In this document: positions 3,770-26,585 of the stretch, one piece after another | Numbering within the stretch: the first letter of the stretch is position 1 | How the letters are laid out: each line of letters opens with the position of its first letter | NCBI GenBank assembly: GCA_964581565.1 | Contig: CAZOOZ010000008.1 | Coordinates: forward strand, 27,552-91,551 | Length of the DNA: 64,000 bases | Direction of reading: 5' to 3' | Origin: an uncultured Eubacteriaceae bacterium | GTDB lineage: Bacteria; Bacillota; Clostridia; Eubacteriales; UBA1433 | Made by a program: the position numbers and the translations under genes | The notes under the pieces: generated by a model | The model's database searches: none | What the model saw: the letters and a program-made list of their open reading frames with translations, nothing else | What the model was told of the DNA's origin: nothing

Positions 3770-5122
3770 ATGCATACTCAGGCTATTATATTGGCTGGCG
3801 GCAAAGGCACGAGAATGAAAAGCGACAAGCCGAAAGTGCTGCACGAAATATGTGGTAAAAGCATGCTTTCTTATGTGCTGGATAATGTCGGTAATGCGGG
3901 AATAGAGCAAATTGCTGTTATTGTTGGCTACGGAGCGGAAGAAGTAAAAAGCAGTATTGTGGGGCAGGTCAGCACATTTACTCAGCACCGGCAGCTTGGA
4001 ACGGGGCATGCAGTTATGCAGGCGCTGCCGTTTATTGATGATAATGCGTATATTGTTATTTTATGCGGCGATGCTCCCTTGGTAGATTCAAAAACCATAC
4101 AAGCTTTATATGAATATACTTCATCAAATAAAAAAGATGCCGTTGTTGTATCGGCTATACTAGAAGATCCCTGCGGTTATGGCAGAATTGTAAGAGGCAG
4201 CGGCGATGAATTGATTAAAATTGTAGAACAAAAAGATGCTGCCGATGAAGAAAAGAAAATCGGCGAAATAAATTCGGGCGTCTATTGCTTTTTAGGGAGT
4301 GTATTAAAATATGCTTTGGGGCATATTAGTAATAATAATTTTCAGGGCGAATATTATCTCACAGACACGATAGAGCTTTTAATCAAAGAAAAATATTCTG
4401 TTGATGTTTTGATGGAAGAGAACAGCGATATAATAAAGGCCGTTAACGATAAAAAGCAGCTTGCTCAATTAGAAAAATTTATGCGGCGTCATATCAATGA
4501 TCTCTGGCTTGGAAAAGGGGTGAGCATGATTGATCCTGATTCGACTTATATTTCATACGACAGTGTCTTAAGTGAAGATGTTCTTTTATATCCAGGTGTT
4601 GTCATTGAAGGACGAAGTATCATCAAAAAAAATTGCATAATAACATCAGGCAGCATGATCAAAAACAGTATTATAGGTGAGGATACGCTTGTGCAAAGTT
4701 CCTATATTACAGACAGCATCGTAGGCAGCCATGTAAAGATCGGGCCTTATGCGCACTTAAGACCAAAATCAAAACTGGCTGATCATGTAAGAATAGGTAA
4801 TTTTGTAGAAGTGAAAAATTCCGAAATAGGGGAAAATTCAAAATCTTCTCATCTTACATACATCGGAGATGCCAAAGTGGGAGATAACGTGAATTTGGGA
4901 TGTGGGGTTGTTTTTGTAAATTATGACGGGAAAAATAAAGCGCTTACAGTTGTGGAAGATGATTGTTTTATAGGCTGCAATGTAAATCTGATTGCGCCTG
5001 TCACAGTAAAAAAAGGCGCCTATGTGGCGGCGGGGTCGACAATTACATTTGATGTGGAAGAAAATAATCTGGCAATCGCGCGATGCAGACAAACCAACAA
5101 AGAAAACTGGGTTAAAAAATAA
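3770..5122 (+). CDS. glmU: Bifunctional UDP-GlcNAc pyrophosphorylase/glucosamine-1-P acetyltransferase
   Basis: ILAGGKGTRMKS, LGTGHA, GEYYLTD, GNFVEVKNS, hexapeptide repeats; GAGGAGG RBS. Confidence 0.96.
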   Translation: MHTQAIILAGGKGTRMKSDKPKVLHEICGKSMLSYVLDNVGNAGIEQIAVIVGYGAEEVKSSIVGQVSTFTQHRQLGTGHAVMQALPFIDDNAYIVILCGDAPLVDSKTIQALYEYTSSNKKDAVVVSAILEDPCGYGRIVRGSGDELIKIVEQKDAADEEKKIGEINSGVYCFLGSVLKYALGHISNNNFQGEYYLTDTIELLIKEKYSVDVLMEENSDIIKAVNDKKQLAQLEKFMRRHINDLWLGKGVSMIDPDSTYISYDSVLSEDVLLYPGVVIEGRSIIKKNCIITSGSMIKNSIIGEDTLVQSSYITDSIVGSHVKIGPYAHLRPKSKLADHVRIGNFVEVKNSEIGENSKSSHLTYIGDAKVGDNVNLGCGVVFVNYDGKNKALTVVEDDCFIGCNVNLIAPVTVKKGAYVAAGSTITFDVEENNLAIARCRQTNKENWVKK

Positions 5123-5154
5123 GTAATAAAAATATTGGAGGAAAAGAAGAGAAA

Positions 5155-6102
5155 ATGAACTGGGCCGATAATAACGTTAAATTAATTGCAGGAAGCTCAA
5201 ATTTGCCTTTGGCAAAAGAAATAGCATCAGTGCTGGAAATGCCGCTGTGTGACACAGCCACAGAACGCTTTAGTGATGGTGAGACATATGTAAATATCAA
5301 TGAGTCTGTGAGAGGTTGTGACATATTCATTATTCAAAGTGTTGCCGAGCCTGTCAATGATAATTTAATGGAATTATTAATTTATATCGATGCGCTCAAA
5401 CGTGCATCGGCAGGAAGGATCAACGCGGTTATTCCTTATTACGGATATGCAAGACAAGACAGGAAAGCACGCTCAAGAGACCCCATCACCGCAAAGTTGG
5501 TAGCAGATTTGATCACTGCGGCAGGTGCCAACAGAGTCATTACAATGGATTTGCATGCACACCAAATTCAGGGATTTTTTAACATTCCTCTCGACCATCT
5601 CACGGCAACAAGCGTGATGGTGGAACATATTTTGCAACTTGGATTGGATGATTTCGTCGTTGTATCGCCGGATGTGGGAAGTGTAAAACGCACACGCAAG
5701 GTAGCCGGTATGCTCGACGCGCCAATGGCAATCATAGATAAACGCCGTTATGCAATGAATACAACGGAAGTCATGAATGTGATCGGTGATGTAAAAGGAA
5801 AAGACTTACTGCTCATAGATGATATGATAGATACGGCGGGGACGATGGCAAACTCGGTTTATGCGCTCAAAAAAATGGGAGCAAAAAATATCTACGCTGC
5901 CGCTACACATGGAGTGCTTTCAGGCAAAGCGATCAAAAATCTAAGCGAAGTCCCAATCGAGAAGGTATTTATCACCAACACGATTGATTTGCCGCAAGAA
6001 AAGCAAATAGATAAGATAAAAATAATCTCTGTTGCAGGCATTATTGCAAAAGCAATTGACAGAGTACATAAAGGCAAAAGTGTAAGTATACTATTTGATT
6101 AA
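5155..6102 (+). CDS. prs: Ribose-phosphate pyrophosphokinase
   Basis: FSDGE, YYGYARQDRK, DLHAHQIQGFF, DDMIDTAGT. Confidence 0.97.
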   Translation: MNWADNNVKLIAGSSNLPLAKEIASVLEMPLCDTATERFSDGETYVNINESVRGCDIFIIQSVAEPVNDNLMELLIYIDALKRASAGRINAVIPYYGYARQDRKARSRDPITAKLVADLITAAGANRVITMDLHAHQIQGFFNIPLDHLTATSVMVEHILQLGLDDFVVVSPDVGSVKRTRKVAGMLDAPMAIIDKRRYAMNTTEVMNVIGDVKGKDLLLIDDMIDTAGTMANSVYALKKMGAKNIYAAATHGVLSGKAIKNLSEVPIEKVFITNTIDLPQEKQIDKIKIISVAGIIAKAIDRVHKGKSVSILFD

Positions 6103-6111
6103 CTGATTTCA

Positions 6112-6143
6112 AAAGAGAGTTCTGCGGTGCAGCACTCTTTTTT
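6112..6143. terminator. Terminator between convergent prs and NUDIX gene
   Basis: AAAGAGAGT.CTGC...GCAGCACTCTTTTTT imperfect hairpin. Confidence 0.6.
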
Positions 6144-6159
6144 TATTGTAACATTAAAA

Positions 6160-7089
6160 CTATATCATTTTTTCGTAGGCTTCAAGCGCGGCAAGATTTC
6201 GCGCTTTTGACATGGCAGCTACTTCAAAACCTTCATGCATGATGGCCCCATGGCTGGAACGCAGCATTTCTTTTGCCTTGGCAATGCTCACATGCATAGG
6301 GTAGATGCCCCAGTTGGATTCCAGTTCTGTCAGTCGTGTCTTATTATTTATATCTTTTGCGTCTGCCGTAAAGTAATAAGACAATTGCAGCATACTGCTG
6401 TATTCTATGCTTGTGCCCAAAGTTTTTAAATTAGTAATAGCGATTCCCGTTTCCTCCAATGCCTCTCTTGCTGCGGCCTTGCGGATATCTTCGCCTTTTA
6501 AAACGCCGCCTCCGGGGATTCCGCAAATATCCAATTTGTCGCTTTTGAGCAGGATGATTTTATCATCATCTGTCTTGATGATGCAGCGTGCAACAATACG
6601 CAGCGGATAGATTCTTTTTTCCGAGTTTTCGGCATGAATATGTATAAAAGACGGATATTTTTTTGCGAGGACATATTTATAAATAATCCATGTCTGTCCG
6701 TCTGAATACATATCTGTTGCAGCTTCGCCGTCAACAAACATGATTTCATGGTCGGCTTCCAGCTCCAAAGATAGTCTTTCTTTAAGTTCGACTTCATAAA
6801 AAATTCCTGTATTAAAAACCTGTTTAAAATATTCAACAGGAGTATCTATGTACCAAGACAGCGTTTCCAGCTTTCTTTTTACGTTGATAGAATATCCGGT
6901 CTCTTCTAAAAATTCTCTTCTCAGGGTTTCCTCATGCGTCTCTCCTTCTTGAACACCGCCTCCGGGAAGAAATTTACCCAGTTTGTTTTTTACAATTAAT
7001 ACTTTTCCGTCAATATCTGTTACCACTCCGTAGATGCCAGTACGCAGTACAACATCACGCTCCGGTTTTCTGATCCCAAATACGGGCAA
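6160..7089 (-). CDS. Tandem two-domain NUDIX hydrolase
   Basis: Two intact Nudix boxes (GGGVQEGETHEETLRREFLEETG; GGGVLKGEDIRKAAAREALEETG); TTG start at 7089 after GAGGTG RBS. Confidence 0.85.
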   Translation of the reverse strand: MPVFGIRKPERDVVLRTGIYGVVTDIDGKVLIVKNKLGKFLPGGGVQEGETHEETLRREFLEETGYSINVKRKLETLSWYIDTPVEYFKQVFNTGIFYEVELKERLSLELEADHEIMFVDGEAATDMYSDGQTWIIYKYVLAKKYPSFIHIHAENSEKRIYPLRIVARCIIKTDDDKIILLKSDKLDICGIPGGGVLKGEDIRKAAAREALEETGIAITNLKTLGTSIEYSSMLQLSYYFTADAKDINNKTRLTELESNWGIYPMHVSIAKAKEMLRSSHGAIMHEGFEVAAMSKARNLAALEAYEKMI

Positions 7090-7124
7090 AGTGATCACCT
7101 CTTCTGATAACTTATTCAATCTAT

Positions 7125-8111
7125 TTATAAAGTAGCGCACATCACAGCTTTGATTGTATGCACACGATTTTCAGCTTCATCAAAAACTTTTGAATACTTG
7201 CTTCTAAACACTTCATCTGTAACTTCCATTTCGGTAATGCCGTACTTTTGATACACCATTTCTCCGAATTCGGTTTCTCTGTCGTGGAAGGAGGGCAGGC
7301 AGTGAAGGAAAATCACATTTTCATTTTTTGTATTTCTGATCATTTCCATATTGACTTGGTATGGCAGCAGCATATCGATTCGTTCTTTGATTTTGTCTTC
7401 TTCGCCCATGGATACCCAGATATCAGTATAGACGACATCGGCCATATGGGCGCCTTCTTTCACATCGCTTGTGCATGTTATTGTGCTACCTGATAATGCA
7501 GCTGTTTGCCGCATTTCATCAACAAGGTCTTGTTCCGGCATGAGCTGTGGCGGAGCAATGACCGTGAAATGCACGCCGAGTTTTGCGCAGATAATCAAAA
7601 GTGAATTGGCAACATTATTTCTCCCGTCACCTGCATATACGAGTTTAATATCGTTATATGGTTTTCTTATATTTTCTTTTATAGTGAGAAAATCTGCGAG
7701 TGCTTGTGTAGGGTGATATAAATCGGTAAGTCCGTTCCATACGGGCAGACCGGAATATTTTGCCAAGTCTTCAACGGTCTGCTGCTTGAAACCGCGGAAT
7801 TCTATACCGTCATAAAATCTTCCGAGTACATTGGCAGTGTCTTCTAGAGATTCTTTTTTGCCCATCTGGCTGTTGGTGAGAAAGGTAACATTCGCGCCTT
7901 CGTCGTATGCGGCTACCTCAAAAGCACATCTTGTGCGTGTAGATGTTTTTTCAAATAAAAGCACAATGTTTTTACCTTTAAGCATCTCTCCTGGAATCTT
8001 ATTTTTCTTTTTGATCTTCAGCTCTTTCGCAAAGTTTAAAAGATATTCGATTTCTTCTTTCGTATAATCTTTAAGTGTGAGTAAGCTTCTTCCTTTTAAT
8101 GATATTGCCAT
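7125..8111 (-). CDS. arcB: Ornithine carbamoyltransferase
   Basis: [25 protein letters not shown]; follows arcA; start 8111 after AGGAG. Confidence 0.92.
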
Positions 8112-8122
8112 ATTATTTCTCC

Positions 8123-9364
8123 TTATATTATTTCTTCTCTGCAAATAGGCATGGTCATACATCTGGGACCGCCACGCCCTCGCACAAGCTCTGAACCTTT
8201 GATTCTGATTACTTTTATATCATGTTTTTCAAGGACTTCATTTGATATTTCGTTTCTGTCGTAAGCGATGACGACGCCGGGAGATAACACAAAGGTGTTC
8301 GTGCTGTCGTTCCATTGTTCTCTCGCGGCAATGATCGGGTCTCCGCCGCCGCTTTTGATTAGATCGATATGTTTCGTATTCAGCGCATCTTGCAGTGTTG
8401 ATTTAAGACTGTCCATTCTTGTAAAATGTATTTGATTATTTTTTCCGCGCGTCATTTTTATAATATTCATGTGTTCGTCAATAGAGGGATATATTGTAAA
8501 TTTATCATAATCCACCATCGTGCATACCGTATCCAAATGCATAAAAGCCCGGATTTTCGGAAGCTGCACTGCATACACATCTTGTATCCGAGAATTTTGA
8601 TAAAATAAATTATTGGCAAGGATTTGTGCGGCGGAGGCATCTGTGCGTTGACTGAGCCCTACGAGCATAGATGCAGAACTCGTCACTAAAATATCACCGC
8701 CTTCTATCGTGCTGCTTTGAATATTATTGTCATACCATAGCGGCACATTATTTTTATTAAAAAACTCATGATGTTTATAAATTGCACGCAGGATGCGGCT
8801 CTCACGTTTTCGTATGGGGTTTTTCATTGTATGGATGGAAAGCCCGTTTTCAATGGCTGCCGCACCGTCGCGCATAAAATACATATTCGGAAGAGGTGGC
8901 ATATAAAACATATACATCTGCGGCATATAATCACTGAGCACTTCTTGCTTTTTTATTTTGGCAACATCTGTGATACTCAGTCCTTTGATTAAGCATTTTG
9001 CCGTCTCTGAAGCATTTAAATCAAATAAATAATCTAAAATACATTGTTCTATATAGTCACATCCAAGGATATCTTTTTCAATGATTTGATGTAAGATATC
9101 TTTCTTTGTTTTCTTATCTTCTAATATATCTGCAAGAAGATCTTTAATATAAATTACATTGGCGCCGAATGTTATGATCACAGAGGCAAAATCATCGTGT
9201 TCTTGCTGCATGCCTTTCAAATATGGGATATCATCAAAAAGTACCATTTCCAAGTTTTGCGGCACAATATTATGCAGCTCTTCATCGGGCCTGTGTAAGA
9301 TAACAGTTTTCAGTTTTGAGATTTCGCTTGTAATATTGATATTGCTGCGCATCATGAAATTCAT
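8123..9364 (-). CDS. arcA: Arginine deiminase
   Basis: [37 protein letters not shown] (catalytic Cys). Confidence 0.95.
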
Positions 9365-9558
9365 CCTCTCATATTTTTATTATTATATAACATTTATAAC
9401 GTTTCATAAATAATTTAATAAAATATCAAGAAATTTATAGTATTCTTAACTAAAAATGTATATTCAAAAAGTTCGTGTACAAAAAATCGTCAAAGATTTA
9501 TAATAAATTATCAAGTATTTGTAAAAAATCATTCTATGCTTTGGGAAAAGGAGAGACG

Positions 9559-10281
9559 ATGGAAGAAGTGATTTGTATTGAAAATATTTCAAAAAAATAC
9601 GGGAAAAAAACTGTTTTAAACAAGGTCAGTTTAACGATTCCAAAAGGGAGAATCTATGGTATCATCGGGCCGTCTGGTGCAGGAAAGACAACGCTCGTTA
9701 AAATGATGGTAGGTATGGAGAAGGCAGACAGCGGAAGCATTACGGTACTTGGATGTGAGATGCCTGATTTACCGGTACTGCAAAATATTGGCTACATGTC
9801 TCAGTCGGATGCGCTGTATGCCGATCTCACAGGCGGAGAGAACCTGAAATTCTTTGCATTGTTGTTTAAAATCCGTGGCGCAAAACAAAAGCAGCGTATT
9901 GCCTACTGTGCCGATGTGGTAGATTTAAGCGATGAATTAAAGAAAAAAGTATCTGCGTATTCAGGAGGCATGCGTCGTCGCCTTGCACTTGCGGTTGCCC
10001 TGGTTCAGGATCCCGAGTTACTTATTTTGGATGAGCCTACAGTAGGCATTGATCCACAGCTTCGCGCCAGTATTTGGGATGAGCTACACAGGCTTCGGGA
10101 TGAAGAAGGGAAAACCATTATCATCACCACGCATGTCATGGACGAAGCTGAAAAGTGTGACCGGCTTGCAATGATCCGTGAAGGCATACTGATCGCAGAC
10201 GGTTCGCCCGGTGAACTCATAGCCGCATATGGTGTAGAAAAGCTGGAAGACGTATTCTTAAAAGCGGGGAGGAAGCAGTGA
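9559..10281 (+). CDS. ABC-2 type exporter ATP-binding protein
   Basis: GPSGAGKT, YSGGM, ILDEPT; start at 9559 after AAGGAG. Confidence 0.92.
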   Translation: MEEVICIENISKKYGKKTVLNKVSLTIPKGRIYGIIGPSGAGKTTLVKMMVGMEKADSGSITVLGCEMPDLPVLQNIGYMSQSDALYADLTGGENLKFFALLFKIRGAKQKQRIAYCADVVDLSDELKKKVSAYSGGMRRRLALAVALVQDPELLILDEPTVGIDPQLRASIWDELHRLRDEEGKTIIITTHVMDEAEKCDRLAMIREGILIADGSPGELIAAYGVEKLEDVFLKAGRKQ

Positions 10282-11339
10282 TGAGAGTAGCGGCAATTAT
10301 CAGAAGGATTTTTCAGCAAATGCACCGCGATAAGCGCACGATGGCTTTGATATTTATTGCGCCGTTGTTTGTGCTCACATTGATGTATTTTATTTTTAAC
10401 GGGGATACGGTAGATGCCAGAGTAGGAATTGTAAATATTGACCAGGGCGTCTATGATGCGTTGAAAGATGCCGATATCGATGTTGTCACGCTTATAAACG
10501 CAGATAAAGATATGATCGTGCAAAAAGACCTCGACGGTATTTTGGAAAAAACGGATGGTGCATATAATCTAATTTTGGAAAATGAAAACCCGAATACGGC
10601 AACAGCATTAAAAGCAAAAATAACACAAACGATTTCGGGAGTGATGTTCCAAACGTTCTTAAATGAAATTCCCATGGGGCCGCTTGGATATCAGGCTGCA
10701 GATATCAATGTTGATTATTTGTATGGCAGTGAAGATACTACCATGTTTGACACGTTCAGCCCCATACTTATAGGTTTTTTTGTCTTTTTTTTCGTATTTC
10801 TCATTGCCGGTATAGGGCTTCTTCGTGAACGTATGACAGGCACAATGGAAAAATTGATGTCCACGCCCGTAAAAAGGTGGGAAGTGGTGATGGGTTATCT
10901 TACGGGATATGGCATTCTTGCAATGTTGCAGACGCTCGTGATTATTTTCTTTTCGGTAGAAATACTCGATATTGTACTTGTCGGCTCTATTTGGAATGTG
11001 ATTTTAATCTGTGCTCTGTCGGCGATCACTGCGCTTGCGCTCGGAATTCTTCTCTCGGCATTTGCGACAAGCGAATTCCAGATGATACAGTTCATCCCGA
11101 TCGTCATCATTCCGCAGGTTTTTTTCTGCGGGCTGTTTCCGATGGAAGGCATGGCAGACTGGCTGCAGGCGGTAGGGAAAATTATGCCAATGTATTACGC
11201 GGCGGATGCGCTCAAAGGGGTTATGTATAAAGGGCTTGGCTTTTATGATATTCTTTTTGATTTAGGCATTCTAACAGCCTTTGCGGTTGTATTTATTGTC
11301 TTGAATGTTTTTGCGTTGAAGCGATATAGAAAATTATGA
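10278..11339 (+). CDS. ABC-2 type exporter permease
   Basis: N-terminal TM, soluble loop, 5 C-terminal TMs, RERMTGTMEKL motif; overlaps ATPase stop. Confidence 0.9.
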   Translation: MMRVAAIIRRIFQQMHRDKRTMALIFIAPLFVLTLMYFIFNGDTVDARVGIVNIDQGVYDALKDADIDVVTLINADKDMIVQKDLDGILEKTDGAYNLILENENPNTATALKAKITQTISGVMFQTFLNEIPMGPLGYQAADINVDYLYGSEDTTMFDTFSPILIGFFVFFFVFLIAGIGLLRERMTGTMEKLMSTPVKRWEVVMGYLTGYGILAMLQTLVIIFFSVEILDIVLVGSIWNVILICALSAITALALGILLSAFATSEFQMIQFIPIVIIPQVFFCGLFPMEGMADWLQAVGKIMPMYYAADALKGVMYKGLGFYDILFDLGILTAFAVVFIVLNVFALKRYRKL

Positions 11340-11789
11340 TAAAAAAGACTGAGGGCAACCTGCAAAGGGTGCCTTTTTTAGTTATATAATTTTTAATAAT
11401 GTTTCTATATTTACTTGAAATACAAGACTAAATTATGCATTTGTATCTGTTATAATTACTTGTGTAAAAAAGTAGAATGGATAGTGTATATTGTAAAAAT
11501 TAATTGGAATAAGAAAAGCATTTTTTTGCTATGTATAACATATTTGTCTCATTAAATAAGATTTTTCTTTTTGTTTATATTACAAACTACATATAATTTC
11601 AATAATAAATAATAAAAAATTTTTTTTGTTTTATTATTCTAGAAATACCACGAAATAAAATTAATAAATATTTAACATATTACATATTGTAAAACGTATA
11701 ACAAAGTGGTATTATAATTTTCGTAAATATATCGTATGGGGATATCGGTGTATTTCAAATAAAAATAGAATAAGAATCAGTAAAGGAAG

Positions 11790-12569
11790 ATGAATATGGA
11801 AATGGCTTTGCCTGTATTTAACGTGTTATGGACAGGCGGTTGGGATTCCACGTATAGAATTCTGTACTTGTCCAGACACGAAGTTGAATTGCGCCCGCAT
11901 TATATTTATTATGAAAACAGAAGATCGCGCGATATAGAAATCAAGACAATGGAAGAAATATCAAAAGATATTCGAAAGGATCCAAAAACAAAATGCACGC
12001 TGCATCCCTTAATAATCACTCAATTTAAAGATATCGAAACAAATGATGATATCACACAAGCTTTTAAAAGAATCCGGCAGGAAGTGTTGATAGGATTTCA
12101 ATACGAGTATTTAGCTCGCTACGCAAACACATTGAATAATCTCGAAATAGGTGTGGAGCAGGGCGGCCTGGCCGAGCAAATGATGAATACCTTCGGAGAG
12201 ATGATAAAGATAAAAGATGAATTAAATCTTGAATATTGGAAAGTGAACGAAAAAAATTCCAGTGAGGATTTAAATAAAGTATTCGGATTGTTTAAATATC
12301 CACTTTACTCTATGACAAAACTCGATATGAAAGAAAAAGCCATAGAGCTTGGATTTATAGATTCTATGTATAAGACATGGTTTTGTCATTTTCCGCGAAA
12401 AGGCAGGCCATGCGGATGTTGCTTTCCATGTAATTTTACGATTGAGGACGGTCTGCCCGAAAGGCTTCCCAATGATGCGCTCAGAAGACATAAAATAGAC
12501 AAGAAATTCGCAGATAAGAAAAGCTATCAGTTGTATAAAAAATACAGAAGAAAATATCTGAATTATTAA
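11790..12569 (+). CDS. QueC-like (7-cyano-7-deazaguanine synthase family) PP-loop ATPase
   Basis: VLWTGGWDST PP-loop and C-terminal TWFC-x8-CGCCFPC Zn-site pattern. Confidence 0.7.
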   Translation: MNMEMALPVFNVLWTGGWDSTYRILYLSRHEVELRPHYIYYENRRSRDIEIKTMEEISKDIRKDPKTKCTLHPLIITQFKDIETNDDITQAFKRIRQEVLIGFQYEYLARYANTLNNLEIGVEQGGLAEQMMNTFGEMIKIKDELNLEYWKVNEKNSSEDLNKVFGLFKYPLYSMTKLDMKEKAIELGFIDSMYKTWFCHFPRKGRPCGCCFPCNFTIEDGLPERLPNDALRRHKIDKKFADKKSYQLYKKYRRKYLNY

Positions 12570-19665: not shown

Positions 19666-20520
19666 TTATTGTGTCTGAAGATAGGCATCTTGCAGCCGCG
19701 TTTCCAAGTTATCGTTATATGAGCGGCGAATTCTTTTCAGGCCGAATAGATCCGAAGTATCCTTCGTTATGTAATTCACTCCGTACTCACATGAGAGTGA
19801 TGCCGAAAAACCCAGTTTTTTTAAGATAATATCCGTATTTTCACTAAATTCTCCATATGGATACGTAAAAGTAGTAGGCATCGTACTTGTGGCTGCGCTG
19901 ATTTCATCTTGCAGTTTTTGTATATCCGCGGTCAGTACTTCTTCATAGGTTGAAAATGATTCGCCGTCGGCTTGCATGCAGCCGATTCTCTCGCTTTTCG
20001 ATGTGTGAAGGTTATATGTGTGATTTTGAACCTCGACATATCCGCTGTGAGCCATCTGGTTTATCTGATCCCAGGAAAGATAAGAATAAGAGCTTAAAAC
20101 TTCTTTTTCATCGATATAAATTCCCGTGACAGACAGCACAATTTTCATATCATATTGCTTTAACAATTCATATGCATAGGTGTATGTACCTAAGAAGCCG
20201 TCGTCAAAAGAAAGAATGATCGGCTTTTCGGGCAGCGGCGAGCCATTATATACATGATCGATAAGATCGGTCATGGTGATAGTTGTATAATTGTGTTCTT
20301 TCAAATATTTCAGATCGCTTTCGAATTCTTCGGGGGATATGGCATATTTACCCAGTTCAGATATGCGGATATCGTGATACATCAGAATAGGAACAACTAT
20401 GGTATCTTCTTTACTTGAATTTGCAGAAGAATATTGCGTGCTCACTATAAAAACAATGAGTACAAGCGCTAAAAATAATAAAGTAGCTATTGCTGTTTTA
20501 CGTTTGCGTTGTTGTATCAT
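19666..20520 (-). CDS. Membrane-anchored polysaccharide deacetylase (CE4)
   Basis: N-terminal TM, PILMYH, LSFDDG, QNHTYNLH, YPYG. Confidence 0.88.
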   Translation of the reverse strand: MIQQRKRKTAIATLLFLALVLIVFIVSTQYSSANSSKEDTIVVPILMYHDIRISELGKYAISPEEFESDLKYLKEHNYTTITMTDLIDHVYNGSPLPEKPIILSFDDGFLGTYTYAYELLKQYDMKIVLSVTGIYIDEKEVLSSYSYLSWDQINQMAHSGYVEVQNHTYNLHTSKSERIGCMQADGESFSTYEEVLTADIQKLQDEISAATSTMPTTFTYPYGEFSENTDIILKKLGFSASLSCEYGVNYITKDTSDLFGLKRIRRSYNDNLETRLQDAYLQTQ

Positions 20521-20623
20521 GATCTGCTCCGAAACGTATATATCAAACAGTATATCAAAAGAAATACAGCTTTCATAAAGTTTCATTTGGATTTTACAAA
20601 AATAAAAGACTGCCCGGCAGTCT

Positions 20624-20947: not shown

Positions 20948-21823
20948 TTATTGTATGGTTTTATAAGCTTTTTGTAATACTTTTTCGATCGTGGTTCCAT
21001 GAGAGCGGCTCACTCTTTTTAGGGCATATAATGTTTCGGCGTCTTTTGTGATCACATTGATGCCATAGTCACAGGAGAGGGTTGCCAAAAATCCGATCTC
21101 TTTTAAAACGATATCCGTATTTTCGCTCGATTTTCCGTAGGGATAGGCAAATGTGTTGGGGACCTTGCCCGTATGAAATAATATCTCTTCCTGAAGCTTT
21201 TGGATATCATCGATCAATACATCGTGATAGGTATCGAAAGATTCATAAGAGATCTGCATGCAGCCAAATCTCGGGTTGCCGGTGCCGTGAAGATTATAGG
21301 TGTGGTTTTGCACTTCCACATAGCCCGAATCCAGCATTTCGTTTAATTGATCCCAGTTGACATGGGCGTAGTCAATACTTTTGCTTGGAAACTCCGTGAA
21401 GTCATCCGTATTTTTACCGATAATGGAGAAGACGATTTTGACATGGTATTGCTTTAGTAAAGGCAGTACGTAGACATAATTATTTAAATAACCGTCGTCA
21501 AAAGTAAGGATAACAGGTTTTTCGGGCAGAGGGGTATCATGATAGACATAATCAATAAGCTCCGTCATGGTAATGGCAGTGTAATTATTTTCCTGAAGAT
21601 ATTGCAAATCACTTTCAAATTCATAGGGGGAGATGGCATCTTTGCCGAGTTTGCTTGTTTTGACTTCGTGATACATAATAATAGGAAGACAAATCGCGTC
21701 TTTGTCCACAGTGCCAGACTGCACCGGTGTTTTTTGATGATTGAAGGCAATAAAAAATACAATACAACTTAAAAGTAAAAAAGCAGCGCCAAGAATATAC
21801 CTGCGCTTAATATGTAGAATCAT
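20948..21823 (-). CDS. Membrane-anchored polysaccharide deacetylase (CE4), paralog
   Basis: N-terminal TM, PIIMYH, LTFDDG, QNHTYNLH, YPYG. Confidence 0.88.
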   Translation of the reverse strand: MILHIKRRYILGAAFLLLSCIVFFIAFNHQKTPVQSGTVDKDAICLPIIMYHEVKTSKLGKDAISPYEFESDLQYLQENNYTAITMTELIDYVYHDTPLPEKPVILTFDDGYLNNYVYVLPLLKQYHVKIVFSIIGKNTDDFTEFPSKSIDYAHVNWDQLNEMLDSGYVEVQNHTYNLHGTGNPRFGCMQISYESFDTYHDVLIDDIQKLQEEILFHTGKVPNTFAYPYGKSSENTDIVLKEIGFLATLSCDYGINVITKDAETLYALKRVSRSHGTTIEKVLQKAYKTIQ

Positions 21824-21955
21824 TTTTTTGCTCCGCTATAAATATTGAACTAATAAAATATACGAAAAAAATATTTATATCAGAACAAAATCAATCTACT
21901 TTTTTATTATTACTTTTATTTTATATTGATTCATAAATGTAATAATGATAGAATG

Positions 21956-22108
21956 CTATTCACTGACTTTAATGTAAATTTCCTCAGTATCCAACTGGGC
22001 TTTTTTTAACAGGTCGACAGCAAGACCGAAATTTTGCTGTTCTATGCTGTCGATGGCTTCTGTGGCTGCGTTAAACAGAATTTTATACATTGTTTCATAG
22101 TTCATCAT
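21956..22108 (-). CDS. Unannotated 50-aa helical protein (copy 1)
   Basis: MMNYETMYKILFNAATEAIDSIEQQNFGLAVDLLKKAQLDTEEIYIKVSE; AGGAGA RBS; paralog at 22554-22709. Confidence 0.8.
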   Translation of the reverse strand: MMNYETMYKILFNAATEAIDSIEQQNFGLAVDLLKKAQLDTEEIYIKVSE

Positions 22109-22213: not shown

Positions 22214-22408
22214 ATGAAAAATATTTTATCACGCTATACACTTCGTATCAGCCCGATATTATTATATAAATTAGGTTATATTGCTGAATTCGAGGGCAGA
22301 ACAAAAAATAAAGAAATAGAGCAATTGATTAAAAAGCATATTGCAGATTTTGAAAAAACTCATGGAGAAATAGAATGTGATTGCATACTTAAGCCTGCCA
22401 CGGAGTAG
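22214..22408 (+). CDS. Arc/TraY-like ribbon-helix-helix DNA-binding protein
   Basis: RYTLRI beta ribbon, LLYKLGYIAEFEGRTKNKEIEQLI helices; GGAG RBS. Confidence 0.75.
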   Translation: MKNILSRYTLRISPILLYKLGYIAEFEGRTKNKEIEQLIKKHIADFEKTHGEIECDCILKPATE

Positions 22409-22553
22409 TTGAAGCATGGCTGTTAAAAAATCCATGGCATAAATATGATACAAATTAAAAAAATTTTGTATCAGCCCGAAGCAGCGGGCGATTACCATTT
22501 ATAAAAGAAAAATATTATCTAATAAAAATGAGGAAGCAGGGAATGCTTCCCTG

Positions 22554-22709
22554 TTATTTATTGGCCTGTATATAGATTTCTTCCGCATCTGTCTGCGCTT
22601 TTTTTAATGTGTCGATAGCCAGTCCGAAATTTTTCTGTTCGATCTTGTAGGTGGCGTCGGTTATCGCGTTAAACAATACTTTATACATTGATTCATAAAT
22701 TGTCATCAT
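22554..22709 (-). CDS. Unannotated 51-aa helical protein (copy 2)
   Basis: MMTIYESMYKVLFNAITDATYKIEQKNFGLAIDTLKKAQTDAEEIYIQANK; AGGAGA RBS. Confidence 0.8.
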   Translation of the reverse strand: MMTIYESMYKVLFNAITDATYKIEQKNFGLAIDTLKKAQTDAEEIYIQANK

Positions 22710-22840: not shown

Positions 22841-23143
22841 ATGGATGTTAAAGATCGTATAAAATTATTAATGGATGAAAAAGGTTGGTCGGCATATAAA
22901 CTGGCGAAAGAAGCAAATTTACCGCAATCCACAATTTCTCATTTATTTAAGAGAAACAACGCTCCTACAATTCCCACTATAGAAGCCATATGTAAAACGT
23001 TTGGGATCACGATGGCGCAGTTTTTTGCAGAGGAAGGGGAGCGGGTGGTGCTCACCAATGAGCAAAAGCAGCTTTTGATTTTGTGGGGTACGCTTTCGAA
23101 AAAACAAAAGAACCTGCTGTATGAGCTTCTTCAGACAATGTGA
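22841..23143 (+). CDS. XRE-family HTH regulator
   Basis: WSAYKLAKEANLPQSTISHL...PTIPTIEAIC...GITMAQFF. Confidence 0.9.
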   Translation: MDVKDRIKLLMDEKGWSAYKLAKEANLPQSTISHLFKRNNAPTIPTIEAICKTFGITMAQFFAEEGERVVLTNEQKQLLILWGTLSKKQKNLLYELLQTM

Positions 23144-23281
23144 TTTAGATAAGTTCCCGTAAGGATACTTTTTTATGTAAAAGTATAAAGAAAATCAACG
23201 ATACTATTCGTCTACAGGAGATGTCTTAGCGCTTGCTTCGGTGTTATATGCCTTGGCGGCGATTTATTTTTCAAAGATTCA

Positions 23282-23356: not shown

Positions 23357-23833
23357 ATGGATATTCCTACAACATTAAAGCATAAACCGGTGATTGTTGC
23401 TCAAAATTATGATAAAGTGGATGGACGCATTGCAAATTCGGATGCAAAAGGACTTTCTTTGGGATTAGCACAGTGGAACGACCGTGGCAAGGTTGATATC
23501 TCTGCTAAAATTTGGAGATATACCGGAGAAAAGTGGTCAAGGCAATCGGAAGAAATGCCGCTTCATCGTGTCATTGATCTTGCGATTCTGATCTGTCGCA
23601 GCAAAAAGTATTTTCATGACGCTTATATATATCCCAACTTATACGACGAGAAGCATACCGAAATCGATCGAATTCCGTTACAGGGGGATGCACTGGATAT
23701 TTCCGTTTGCACAAATAACCCAATGATTGATGAAGATATTCTGCTGTTTCGTGATGCATTGACCGCAGATGACGAAATGATATCGGAGCGGCTTCGCCGT
23801 CTTTCTGCGATTCTTAAAGAAATGGGGTATTAA
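23357..23833 (+). CDS. Conserved protein (DUF6530-like)
   Basis: IPTTLKHKPVIV...GLSLGLAQWN...KWSRQSEEMPLHR; family recalled from memory. Confidence 0.7.
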   Translation: MDIPTTLKHKPVIVAQNYDKVDGRIANSDAKGLSLGLAQWNDRGKVDISAKIWRYTGEKWSRQSEEMPLHRVIDLAILICRSKKYFHDAYIYPNLYDEKHTEIDRIPLQGDALDISVCTNNPMIDEDILLFRDALTADDEMISERLRRLSAILKEMGY

Positions 23834-23834
23834 A

Positions 23835-24179
23835 TTGAAAAGTGAAGAAAAGAAAAAAATAATTACGGCATATAAAGAGCGGGTCATCATCGGCGGCATT
23901 TATGCAGTCAAAAATATTAAAACCGGGAAAATATTATTGGAAGCCACACAGGATCTTGCGGGAAGCCGTAATCGATTTGAGTTTTCTAAACGAACCGGCT
24001 CGGCGACCTCCTTCATTATTCAAAAGGACTGGCAGATATATGGGCCTGACTGTTTTACCTTTGAAGTGCTGGAAGAAATAAAAAAAGACACTACACAAAC
24101 GCCGCAGGAATTTGCTGAGGATATAAAGACATTGAAAGAACTATGGAAAGAAAAGTTTCCTTGCGAACAACTGTATTAA
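23835..24179 (+). CDS. GIY-YIG nuclease-family small protein
   Basis: GGIYAVKN..TGK, NRFEF, LQKDW-like IQKDW, FTFEVLE; 1-bp gap after previous stop. Confidence 0.75.
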   Translation: MKSEEKKKIITAYKERVIIGGIYAVKNIKTGKILLEATQDLAGSRNRFEFSKRTGSATSFIIQKDWQIYGPDCFTFEVLEEIKKDTTQTPQEFAEDIKTLKELWKEKFPCEQLY

Positions 24180-24260
24180 TAATTTTTGTCATAAATAAGC
24201 AGAATGCAAATTTATCATAGAAGATTTTGCACACAAATGTCAGATGACCTAGAACACAGA

Positions 24261-24354
24261 GTATTCTCAGGCGAGCAAAAGCAACTTTTGATTCTATGGG
24301 TCATGCTCTCCGGAAAAAAGAAGCTTGCTATATGAACTTCTTCAGACGATGTAA
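24261..24354 (+). pseudogene. Frameshifted 3' remnant of the XRE gene
   Basis: Reads EQKQLLILW..LS / LLYELLQTM* like the end of 22841-23143; downstream TTTAGATA also shared. Confidence 0.75.
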
Positions 24355-24542
24355 TTTAGATAGATATCCAAAAGAATATTTTTTATGAAAAAATAAAAAT
24401 AATAAATTTGTTAATAAAGTTAAAATTCTATTTGGTTATCAGAGTTTAAAGTATATGAATATTTTCAACATCTTTTTTGTGTTTATGTAATAAATATTAT
24501 TCAATTTAAATTTATTTTCATAAAATAAAATATGATTTCTTG

Positions 24543-25700
24543 TTAGAATGGAAGATCATCGTCATTAGATAATGAAATCGACGAAAGTTTAGAAATCATG
24601 TTAGTTAAAATCAATTTTTGTGATTGTTTCGTACAGCCTTTGTACCATTCATAAAATGATTTGACTTCATTATATTTAATCTCCATACGTGAATTGTAAC
24701 GGTAACCTCCCGTAACAATACATCTAATTACATCAGAATTTTGTTGTATTATATCTTCGAAACAATTATCACGGAGCACTTTTTCTAATTTAAATAAAAA
24801 CAGGTCAGTATCGTAATTAAATTTTTTTTCATCAGTATATGAATATAGAGCGTTATAAATACTGTTTGAAAAATTTTTATAGATTCTTTTATCAGCAACT
24901 GGAATATCCAAATTAATAAAATCATCTTTATCAATACTTTCTTTGATTTCAGCAAAAGAATCAAATCTATCATTGGGAGATTTTTCCATCATTTTATTTA
25001 AAAGACTTTGATATGAAAAATCACAATAATCAGGCTCATTCATATTTTTTATTAAACGATTAAACAATTCGGCAACATAAAACATATCTGTCTTAGAAGT
25101 ATAAAAGCCCTTATAATATTCATTAGGTAATGTGTCAGAATTATTTCGATTAATATCTGCAATTAAACTGTCCTCAAAGCTGCTTGGATTTTCAAATATT
25201 TTTCCAATGCCAAAATCAATTATTTTTACATTTCCTGCTTTATCTATTAAAATATTTCCTTCTCGTATATCTCTATGAATGATGCCATGTTCTTCGATAT
25301 ACTGGAATCCGTCAATAAGCTCTATAAAAACTTGATCAAGAGAAGCAATTTTATGCGATGGGGAATAATCGTGTATATACTCGTCTAATTTAACCCCGTC
25401 AATATATTCCATTAAAATGTATCCAGTAAAAATGTTTTGATAAGCGTAATAATTAAATATTCTTACAATGTTTTTGTGATTCAGTTTATGCAGAATTTTA
25501 ATTTCATCAAGGAAGTTTTTAAAAAATTTTTCCTTAATTTCTGTATATTCTGGTTCGTATTTCTTTGCAACAAGAAGCTCCTCTATAAAAGGATCTTGTA
25601 ATAATACAGTTTTTGCAAATGAACCATTGCCTAAATTATCATTTACCATAATATAATCTTTTTGCTTGACAAATTTAATTATATTATCATTTTCTTTCAT
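24543..25700 (-). CDS. Standalone Hanks-type Ser/Thr protein kinase with C-terminal domain and DDDLPF tail
   Basis: LGNGSFA, VAKK, HRDIREGN, DFG; no TM or PASTA; visibly AT-richer than neighbours. Confidence 0.9.
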   Translation of the reverse strand: MKENDNIIKFVKQKDYIMVNDNLGNGSFAKTVLLQDPFIEELLVAKKYEPEYTEIKEKFFKNFLDEIKILHKLNHKNIVRIFNYYAYQNIFTGYILMEYIDGVKLDEYIHDYSPSHKIASLDQVFIELIDGFQYIEEHGIIHRDIREGNILIDKAGNVKIIDFGIGKIFENPSSFEDSLIADINRNNSDTLPNEYYKGFYTSKTDMFYVAELFNRLIKNMNEPDYCDFSYQSLLNKMMEKSPNDRFDSFAEIKESIDKDDFINLDIPVADKRIYKNFSNSIYNALYSYTDEKKFNYDTDLFLFKLEKVLRDNCFEDIIQQNSDVIRCIVTGGYRYNSRMEIKYNEVKSFYEWYKGCTKQSQKLILTNMISKLSSISLSNDDDLPF

Positions 25701-25846
25701 TACTCATTCCACGCTTTCTTGAAATATATACGTTTTATTGAAAATAATTATATCATATAATTTCATTTGAAATATATTTTGGATAGTATAACAATAGTAG
25801 TATTAGATAAAATTTTTATTTTATAAATTATAAAATAAAAGCCAAC

Positions 25847-26515
25847 CTAAAAATCAGCATTTAATATTTCCTTTGACCACCGAAACATCAAATCAAAGTA
25901 AATATCTGTATTCGCCATGATTGTGCTGCTGTAAGCGTTCCAATTGATATTTATAGTCAAAATTTCCCGTTCAGCACCTTCAAGCAGCGGCAGTAATTCT
26001 TTTTTTGTGCAAATATATATGCCGCTGCGCAAGTAGCAAAGAGCCTGCAGAAGAAAAAACGGGCTCTTATACATGCCCTTAATGGCATCGATATCCAGGG
26101 GTGTGTGAACGGCTGCGTGACAGCATGCATGATAAAGACCTGATGCGCTGATCTTTACACTGTCTATAATATCTTTACGCTCTGTATTGGGGAGTAGTGT
26201 ATCGAGTGCACCGTAATATGGAAGCGTATCCTGTTTAAACTGGAACAATTCATACTTGGGCCAGTTTAATAGCTCTTGCCTGCCGCCTATGAAACCGCAT
26301 GCCTTATCGTTTTGCGGCATTGTTGCGAGAATTTTTCTGTAAGCGATGAGGTCGTTCATGGATACTGCATCAAGGATAACCACAGCGTCAATGTCGCTGT
26401 CTTCATGCGCTTCCTGTCTCCGATAGCTTCCCTGCAGCCCTGCAAACAAAAGCCTGTTTTTAAAATGAGCTTTCAATTTATCGGTCAGTTCCGTCATCCA
26501 GTTATCTGCGTTCAT
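25847..26515 (-). CDS. Pol-beta-fold nucleotidyltransferase domain protein
   Basis: GLQGSYRRQEAHEDSDIDAVVILD (GS...DxD). Confidence 0.8.
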   Translation of the reverse strand: MNADNWMTELTDKLKAHFKNRLLFAGLQGSYRRQEAHEDSDIDAVVILDAVSMNDLIAYRKILATMPQNDKACGFIGGRQELLNWPKYELFQFKQDTLPYYGALDTLLPNTERKDIIDSVKISASGLYHACCHAAVHTPLDIDAIKGMYKSPFFLLQALCYLRSGIYICTKKELLPLLEGAEREILTININWNAYSSTIMANTDIYFDLMFRWSKEILNADF

Positions 26516-26585
26516 TATCAGTGTGAGTCCTTTCATAAATGGTTTATCGAGTTATTTTAAATCGCGAGGAAAAGTTATATGAAAT

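Follow-up and report, generated by a model that had tools for sequence, protein, structure and literature searches.

A stand-alone Hanks-type kinase whose C-terminal tail matches the SSB tip of its host

The kinase and its domains

The subject of this analysis is a single gene in a stretch of 64,000 nucleotides (hereafter ‘the window’) from an uncultured Eubacteriaceae bacterium (contig CAZOOZ010000008.1 of assembly GCA_964581565.1). It encodes a Ser/Thr kinase of the Hanks type whose last residues reproduce the tip of SSB, the bacterial protein that binds single-stranded DNA. The gene is read from the minus strand, and its parts, given as window positions together with the evidence on which each was delineated, are the following.

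24543..25700, minus strand: complete coding sequence of a soluble Hanks-type Ser/Thr kinase with an SSB-tip tail, 385 aa plus stop (open reading frame (ORF) and translation, full-length homologs)
24936..25646, minus strand: kinase domain, residues ~19-255 (Pfam, invariant catalytic residues, AlphaFold2 (AF2) and Foldseek)
25254..25277, minus strand: catalytic loop H142-R143-D144...N149 (alignment of 66 sequences)
25209..25217, minus strand: DFG motif D162-F163-G164 (alignment of 66 sequences)
24582..24935, minus strand: family-specific C-terminal domain (CTD), residues ~256-373, predicted alpha/beta (fold prediction, structure searches)
24546..24581, minus strand: C-terminal tail, residues 374-385, SISLSNDDDLPF, predicted to be flexible (low pLDDT, the predicted local distance difference test score)
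24546..24563, minus strand: SSB-tip mimic D380-D-D-L-P-F385 with free C-terminus (identical to the end of the genome’s SSB)

The catalytic core is intact. The protein scores 108.6 bits with PF00069 (Pkinase; cut-off 31.7, E 4.6e-31), the match covering residues 19-177 only, and the kinase domain displays the glycine-rich loop (G24-A29), K46, E66, HRD (142-144), N149, DFG (162-164), P192/E194 and R245. In a family alignment of 66 sequences sharing 28-78% identity with the window kinase, residues G26, K46, E66, H142, D144, N149, D162, G164 and R245 are invariant, as are the last two residues of the tail, P384 and F385, while R143 and F163 are at least 90% conserved. The AF2 model obtained with this alignment (mean pLDDT 91.4) consists of a bilobal kinase and a separate domain comprising residues ~256-373, and a Foldseek search of the PDB with the kinase model returned PknB-type kinases at the top (E ~1e-13), with Fyn, CHK1 and others following down to ~1e-11. 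Pfam score, catalytic residues and bilobal fold thus identify the protein as a Hanks-type kinase. No transmembrane segment was found (maximum 19-residue Kyte-Doolittle mean 0.86), the Pfam scan returned kinase families only and no SSB/OB domain (PF00436) in the kinase protein, and none of its neighbours scanned against Pfam is a phosphatase. A preceding sequence-only reading of this DNA had noted intact Hanks motifs, a C-terminal domain of ~120 aa, SSB-like last residues, the lack of both a transmembrane segment and a partner phosphatase, and a sequence richer in AT than the flanks; all of these observations are borne out by the results given here and, for the composition, below. In a number of database entries (P0123, P0240, P0253, P0257, P0262, P0263, P0267), the protein starts exactly at what is Met97 of the kinase, itself an invariant residue, and these entries are probably gene-caller start errors or contig-edge fragments rather than a shorter isoform.

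The CTD comprises ~120 residues. Folding residues 256-385 alone with a 74-sequence alignment yielded a confident alpha/beta model (pLDDT 91.5), for which no relative was recognised (i) by Foldseek against the PDB (best E 0.99), (ii) by VIA-align, with which the best Z among 48,161 representative chains was 3.9 and lay under the noise level of the tool, or (iii) among viral structures in BFVD (best E 0.58). No Pfam family matched the CTD either, and the ESM Atlas clusters in which it clearly recurs are those of this kinase family itself and some made up of ~200-residue ‘hypothetical’ proteins, which are probably fragments. The CTD appears from the models to be a fold without a solved relative, failed structure searches falling short of proving a new fold. 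A weak link between the CTD and PIN_12, which had arisen from one ESM Atlas cluster (TM-score 0.53), was dropped; a PIN_12 gene located next to the kinase in locus L061 lacks an SSB-type tail.

Beyond the folded surface of the CTD the SSB tip projects by ~10 residues. The last ~10 residues have a pLDDT of ~52 in the full-length AF2 model, and the tail reaches 72 in the CTD-only model, so that low pLDDT in two models predicts the flexibility and exposure that characterise an SSB C-terminal tip. A prediction of a two-copy kinase complex scored 0.18 against a mark of 0.42. No part of the protein is less acidic than the CTD, whose isoelectric point (pI) is 7.8 as opposed to 5.0 in the kinase domain.

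An SSB-type ending beyond chance

The kinase ends in SISLSNDDDLPF, followed by the stop codon. Its last six residues, DDDLPF, stand directly before the stop and combine the elements of the C-terminal tip of SSB (SSB-Ct), namely three acidic residues, Ile or Leu, Pro, and Phe at a free C-terminus; SSB-Ct reads DDDIPF in E. coli and DDDLPF in Firmicutes. Searching the genome from which the window was taken with PF00436 revealed a single SSB of 152 aa, which is encoded on another contig and ends in ...PIDDDDLPF. The kinase and the sole SSB of this genome are thus identical in their last six residues. When all stop-to-stop frames of at least 100 aa were surveyed in the entire 2.29-Mb genome, an ending of the form [DE][LIVMF]PF occurred in only 2 of 3,551 frames, and these two are the SSB and the kinase; the same ending was found in 0 of 1,748 non-kinase ORFs of at least 100 aa across 80 related loci of other genomes. 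A recent capture of the 3' end of ssb by the kinase gene was considered and ruled out: the Leu, Pro and stop codons differ between the two genes, and the sequences upstream of the shared end are unrelated.

The ending is shared by the family. Full-length homologs from a word-indexed search are 58-77% identical to the kinase, and among the matches listed 117 of 120 end in PF and 3 of 120 in PFN. When 1.84 billion cluster representatives (50%-identity clusters) were then searched exhaustively with HMMER, 195 proteins were obtained at E <= 1e-30; among the best 150 of these, 131 match the CTD and 110 have it complete. The complete-CTD representatives are often just 30-35% identical to the query, and 103 of the 110 end in PF, the seven others including near-variants such as ...LPFN, ...LPFT, ...IPY and ...IQF. 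Counted from the C-terminus, position -3 holds I in 44 cases, L in 43, V in 10 and M in 4, and Asp or Glu prevails at positions -4 to -6, giving the family consensus D-D-D-[IL]-P-F. The sequence-only reading had made its proposal depend on conservation of the tail among homologs, and conserved it is.

A species-level scan (one genome per prokaryotic species) revealed at least 550 relatives of the kinase core, and the family analyses described in the following use the best 80 loci. These span Bacillota, Bacteroidota, Pseudomonadota, Campylobacterota, Spirochaetota, Saccharibacteria, Actinomycetota, Acidobacteriota, Planctomycetota and others. Kinase ORFs called in them end in PF in 72 of 79 cases and in PFN in 3, the remaining 4 being truncated or different. 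On viral contigs full-length members are rare: of the 80 loci kept from a separate scan of such contigs, 4 are full-length, and all four end in PF.

The tail tracks the resident SSB

SSB genes were located with PF00436 in 75 kinase-bearing genomes, their C-termini were read, and the best-scoring SSB of each genome was paired with its kinase. Both proteins end in PF in 62 of the 75 genomes, and 57 of these 62 pairs have the same residue at position -3 (L/L 34, I/I 21, V/V 2). All three kinases ending in LPFN (L003, L017, L033) reside in genomes whose SSB ends in EELPFN. The SSBs of these Lachnospiraceae-type genomes (for L003, L033 and L017, SSB loci L151, L152 and L156) extend one residue past the canonical Phe, and the kinases copy that extension; the free carboxylate of the terminal Phe is regarded as important for SSB-Ct binding. 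A further observation concerns the genome of L004 (G003; SSB loci L093, L162), in which the best SSB ends in ...DDDIPW and the other in ...ISDDDLPF; it is the latter which the kinase matches.

Concordance was also examined on a tree of 74 kinases calculated with the tail columns removed. All 63 rows of the tree with L or I in both proteins agree (8 of these use a lower-ranked SSB copy). For each of the two proteins the tree requires 6 L/I switches, those of the kinase all being matched by the SSB. Well-supported branches provide 4 independent pairs and all branches together 6, and every one of these pairs changes in the same direction. In addition, V/V arises twice on the tree (L013, L034), LPFN/LPFN arises in two distant clades (L003, L033), and the residue is V in L034, L in L041 and I in L042, three sister kinases each of which matches the SSB of its own host. 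The likeness extends further upstream: at positions -4 to -6, kinase and SSB are identical at 124 of 210 sites, compared with 104.1 +/- 4.1 after permuting SSB tails within the same -3 class; the observed count was reached in 0 of 5,000 shuffles, by a statistic that ignores phylogeny.

We conclude that, to judge from this co-variation, the kinase tail is under selection to resemble the tip of the resident SSB. The SSB-type ending is beyond chance and, on the sequence evidence, a general, host-matched trait of a widespread kinase family. The view that the SSB-tail mimic is a functional feature, put forward in the sequence-only reading, is thereby well supported, the tail being near-universal in the family and co-varying with the SSB tip of the host.

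Genomic context of the kinase family

Each of 36 other genomes checked contains exactly one copy of the kinase. The kinase has no conserved partner gene: after clustering three genes per side in 79 loci, the largest cluster held 6 proteins from 5 loci. Two genes per side (253 proteins) were annotated with Pfam and classified by hand from the Pfam names, counting restriction-modification (R-M), abortive infection (Abi), toxin-antitoxin, Shedu, PARIS-like, McrBC, GmrSD, Cas9, Schlafen/AlbA, T5orf172, integrase, recombinase and transposase genes. With crude ORF calls and E-value cut-offs that differ between the two halves of the kinase loci, about 39-40 of the 79 loci have a defence or mobile-element gene within two genes of the kinase. 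For 36 loci, positions 50 kb away on the same contigs of the same genomes served as controls and received the same treatment. Defence or mobile-element neighbours were found at 14 of 36 kinase loci vs 3 of 36 controls (Fisher p=0.0046; paired 12 vs 1, p=0.0034), the control being scored at the more permissive of the two cut-offs. The defence-island enrichment which the sequence-only reading had asked for is present, and in the operational sense of enrichment over background the kinase qualifies as a defence-island gene.

Several individual loci illustrate this context. In L002 (metagenome-assembled genome of Flavonifractor, 4643-12149), the kinase is part of a type I R-M operon in the order hsdM, hsdS, kinase, hsdR, with gaps of -1 and +18 nt; embedding in a type I R-M operon is an arrangement typical of secondary defence genes such as PrrC. 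The kinase directly follows an R-M gene in L003, L005, L050, L060, L066 and L070. Three Burkholderiaceae share a convergent Shedu-type neighbour (L022:9146-9784, L028:9128-9748, L040:9122-9778), which encodes an SduA_C-domain protein of ~210 aa, lies at most 8 nt from the kinase stop or overlaps it, and represents the sole locally recurrent neighbour. In a Bacillus genome, a second, unrelated Pkinase gene encoding 508 aa (L078:4760-6283) is located at most two genes downstream of the family member.

Relation to described proteins and defence systems

Docking to the SSB tail is documented for host and phage proteins alike. The hexapeptide DDDIPF has been termed the conserved SSB-Ct (PMC5872125), and dissociation constants for SSB-Ct binding have been given as 98 nM for the peptide with E. 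coli ExoI and 10.6 uM for Redbeta of phage lambda, where the exchange F177A abolishes binding (PMC6393309). Efficient annealing by Sak, the annealase of phage 80alpha, is reported to require the last 7 residues of its SSB, and the same source describes phage recombinases as targets of several unrelated defence systems (PMC11846896); a further report treats the SSB tail as a compatibility constraint in the choice of RecT proteins (PMC13490951). The kinase resembles SSB in the acidic run, the L/I, the Pro, the terminal Phe with free carboxylate, and the flexible extreme C-terminus; it differs in that its tip is attached through ~10 residues to a kinase and a novel domain, whereas that of SSB belongs to an OB-fold (oligonucleotide/oligosaccharide-binding) protein. 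SSB itself is a tetramer, and its linker is long, disordered and far longer than ~10 residues. Neither RecT (PF03837) nor ERF (PF04404) was found in the window genome.

Among single-gene defence kinases, PD-T4-6 is reportedly a Ser/Thr kinase system of E. coli with anti-phage activity, described by Vassallo et al. in 2022. Like the window kinase it is a stand-alone kinase gene, and many of the PADLOC hidden Markov models for PD-T4-6 match at 1e-12 to 2.5e-30, the best being PDLC04047 (2.5e-30). However, what is aligned are residues ~19-175 of the kinase and the first ~160 of 292-547 model positions, so that C-lobe, CTD and tail are uncovered and the match does not extend over most of either protein or model. 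Stk2, the abortive-infection kinase of staphylococci, is described as a lone, soluble, eukaryote-like Ser/Thr kinase which a phage protein switches on and which causes cell death through phosphorylation of proteins with core functions (PMC6532042). As judged from its description, Stk2 is the closest functional analogue; it is not among the 25 of 33 PADLOC families listed for the kinase.

Other kinases are more distant. The core matches MAD6 of the MADS system (PADLOC mad6, 2.7e-31), yet the corresponding NCBIfam model (NF047741) scores 76.8 bits where the curated cut-off is 460, and PglW of BREX scores 24.6 bits with NCBIfam against a cut-off of 990. Moreover, MAD6 and PglW kinases are much larger and have partner genes, unlike the window kinase with its lack of any conserved neighbour. 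PASTA kinases of the PknB/Stk1 type provide the best structural matches of the kinase domain (E ~1e-13), but the model NF033483 scores 96.4 bits against 450, and the window kinase has neither a transmembrane segment nor a PASTA domain. No NCBIfam model came near its cut-off for the kinase, and in PHROGs only a generic ‘serine-threonine kinase’ family matched (residues 13-256). No account of a kinase or defence protein bearing an SSB-type tail came up in a full-text literature search, with most subscription journals outside its coverage. On this evidence the kinase family is previously undescribed, and its C-terminal domain appears to be novel. While single-gene defence kinases and docking through the SSB tip were already known, what is new here is the host-matched SSB-type tail on a kinase.

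The kinase locus in the window

The following further features were delineated around the kinase gene.

24180..25846, no strand assigned: low-GC segment (about 0.25-0.31) containing only the kinase gene and flanking spacers (composition)
25701..25846, minus strand: AT-rich upstream intergenic region, 146 bp, with a weak sequence resembling a Shine-Dalgarno site, GGAATGAG, before the ATG (sequence)
24273..24384, plus strand: remnant of the 3' end of a helix-turn-helix (HTH) gene with downstream spacer, 76% identical to 23060-23173 (direct repeats D2, D3, D7)

The GC content drops to 0.25-0.28 over 24250-26000, compared with 0.36-0.48 in the flanks and 0.367 for the whole genome, and the low-GC segment is a probable horizontally acquired unit as judged by its composition. 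The kinase is an accessory gene: a search of 40 relatives, whose genomes are mostly nearly complete, did not find it at E <= 1e-20; these relatives comprise 5 from its genus, 1 from its family and 34 from its order. Its promoter presumably resides in the 146-bp upstream region; promoter-like sites upstream of the kinase do not exceed those in shuffled sequences (17 vs 14.7 +/- 3.8 expected), and a terminator scan at the locus found none.

The HTH remnant directly downstream of the kinase reads as the scar of a modular rearrangement. Between the two copies of the 3' end of this XRE-type HTH gene (23060-23173 and 24273-24384) lie a DUF6530 gene (23357-23833, plus strand; Pfam 2.5e-80) and, immediately after it, an ORF of 114 aa (23835-24179, plus strand), whose matches are weak and of homing-endonuclease or GIY-YIG type (PADLOC HEase 0.0028, PHROG 2.4e-4, TIGR01453 5.8e-5). 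The arrangement looks like the insertion of a cassette into a pre-existing, convergent HTH/kinase pair.

Directly upstream of the kinase, on the same strand and with normal GC content, a protein of 229 aa with a nucleotidyltransferase fold is encoded (25847-26536, minus strand), which weakly matches an MntA-type antitoxin (5.5e-4) and PADLOC PDC-S09 (7.5e-9); this gene is not conserved as a partner of the kinase in the other family loci. Farther away on the minus strand, two paralogous ORFs of ~50 aa (21954-22108 and 22552-22706) form a 155-nt repeat with 73% identity and match no family; a small ribbon-helix-helix/Arc-like ORF is located between them (22214-22408). Two paralogous polysaccharide-deacetylase genes (19666-20586 and 20948-21823, minus strand) flank a gene with a TfoX_C domain.

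Interpretation

The explanation which we favour, and which we consider on balance probable, is that the family consists of single-gene, horizontally mobile, defence-type Hanks kinases whose SSB-tip mimic would let them dock onto readers of the SSB tail, and that these readers activate the kinase, are its substrates, or both. A tail that is kept identical to the tip of the host SSB is best explained as a ligand for the same pockets. We infer that the free ...D-D-[L/I]-P-F-COOH end would plug into pockets which normally read the SSB tail, either on host enzymes of replication, repair and recombination, or on phage proteins exploiting the host SSB, for example single-strand annealing proteins. 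During infection, multimeric phage readers of the SSB tail might capture several kinase tails at once, which would cluster the kinase and lead to trans-autophosphorylation. The kinase may then phosphorylate the docked proteins of DNA metabolism, so that replication or recombination of phage DNA would be blocked or the infection aborted. Alternatively, the tail might only deliver the kinase to host clients of SSB, and the trigger would reside elsewhere, perhaps in the CTD. Tail conservation and tracking are predicted both by a tail acting as bait, that is, as a sensor for phage proteins, and by a tail acting as an address label for substrates, the two mechanisms raised in the sequence-only reading, and computation therefore cannot separate them; within the docking explanation we lean slightly towards the bait. 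It is tempting to go one step further and to consider these proteins as immune kinases with an ‘integrated decoy’, in which the host-matched copy of the SSB tip baits phage annealases or replication factors and their capture switches the kinase on. We offer this more specific scenario tentatively, as possible rather than probable. If true, it would constitute a guard/decoy sensor from which phages could not easily escape without losing their grip on the host SSB.

Several results weigh against the docking defence kinase, and they concern either the tail or the proposed role in immunity. With respect to the tail, (i) the residue at position -3 differs in 5 of the 62 PF/PF pairs (L/V in L006 and L076, P/V in L010, M/I in L020, V/I in L060); (ii) 10 of the 75 genomes, most of them from Bacteroidota that have short paralogues of SSB, lack a PF tail on the best-scoring SSB, and a second, lower-ranked SSB copy has a PF tail with the -3 residue of the kinase in 8 of these, the other two being L039 and L054 (where the SSB ends in ...LPY); (iii) the kinase tree mostly follows the phyla (17 label changes, the minimum possible being 16), so that much of the raw tail concordance is shared ancestry and the raw count overstates independence; (iv) the number of independent events is small, and with 4 pairs the sign test gives p=0.125, the lowest attainable; and (v) the linker from the CTD to the tip comprises only ~10 residues, which might restrict access to some pockets. 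With respect to immunity, (vi) in about half of the 79 loci no gene near the kinase is recognisable as belonging to defence or mobile elements; (vii) the window neighbours themselves (nucleotidyltransferase, DUF6530 protein, GIY-YIG-like ORF, HTH protein) are no classical defence genes; (viii) full-length members were not found in phage or plasmid records, in which there are only partial kinase-domain matches (coverage at most 68% in phages and at most 77% in plasmids, identity below 60%); and (ix) the PADLOC and NCBIfam matches cover the generic catalytic core, with NCBIfam scores far below the cut-offs, from which no membership in a named defence family follows. The defence role proposed in the sequence-only reading is thus supported indirectly at most: defence and mobile-element neighbours are enriched, the kinase was not found in relatives, and the PADLOC PD-T4-6 and mad6 matches are confined to the catalytic core.

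Points (iii), (vi) and (vii) would fit a kinase that has no part in phage defence. Such a protein would be an accessory regulator, possibly carried on integrative elements, which uses its tail to reach enzymes of replication and repair and phosphorylates them to tune their activity, be it under stress, upon DNA damage or while an element is being transferred. The tracking of the SSB tip predicts docking to SSB clients and nothing about phages, and a tree following the phyla together with a single copy per genome fits a stable accessory function. On the other hand, the kinase was not found in the 40 relatives searched, including the 5 of its own genus, and its GC content is strongly atypical. 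Family members reside inside or directly after R-M operons and beside Shedu, Abi, PARIS-like, McrBC and Cas9 genes, and such neighbours are enriched over controls from the same contigs. We therefore regard a purely non-immune regulator as unlikely.

The tail might also serve mainly as a degradation tag for ClpXP, by which a toxic kinase would be kept at low level until infection or stress disturbs proteolysis. Evidence for such a role of the motif comes from Streptococcus mutans UA159, in which DDDLPF or even LPF alone renders GFP sensitive to ClpXP in vivo, SsbA is stable when deprived of its last six residues, and an LPF ending occurs only on SsbA, SsbB and the hypothetical protein SMU.394 (PMC5143411). 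In that same study, however, recognition is described as strain-dependent, as not reproduced in vitro, and as unseen in E. coli and the other streptococci tested (PMC5143411). Furthermore, the kinase tail is kept across many phyla, occurs in IPF, VPF and LPFN forms, and tracks the host SSB including the acidic positions -4 to -6; matching beyond LPF is more than a degron of three residues needs. Degradation as the main purpose of the tail is thus improbable, and a degron role could coexist with docking.

Only marginally less favoured is a tail that acts as an autoinhibitory pseudo-ligand, folding back on the kinase or on the CTD, whether in cis or in trans, until a competitor releases it, with the likeness to SSB being secondary. 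Acidic C-terminal tails are able to bind the very proteins to which they belong, the tail of SSB has been reported to interact with its own OB fold, and in the kinase the least acidic part is the CTD, to which the tail is joined by a short linker. Nevertheless, the tail is not confidently docked in either of the AF2 models, and there would be no reason why a purely internal ligand should change with the host SSB among L, I, V and LPFN forms, so that we consider this explanation improbable as well. Finally, the kinase protein could be a passive plug which, with a tip identical to that of SSB, competes for SSB clients while its kinase activity is dispensable, but this is very improbable, since the catalytic residues are invariant in the 66 aligned sequences, which argues for selection on catalysis, and a single-copy accessory protein could hardly out-compete the abundant, tetrameric SSB.

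Significance

Defence kinases encoded by a single gene are known, and how they sense infection and choose their substrates is largely open; the tail of the present family provides a clue to these questions which can be read from sequence. If the tail of the docking kinase is a bait, the family would represent a bacterial form of immunity by decoy, directed at a hub on which phages have to rely. As an address label, the tail would define a kinase wired to the SSB interactome. The host-matching of the tail may matter when such kinase genes move between species, and a search for SSB-type tips on proteins other than SSB may reveal additional participants, from hosts as well as from phages.

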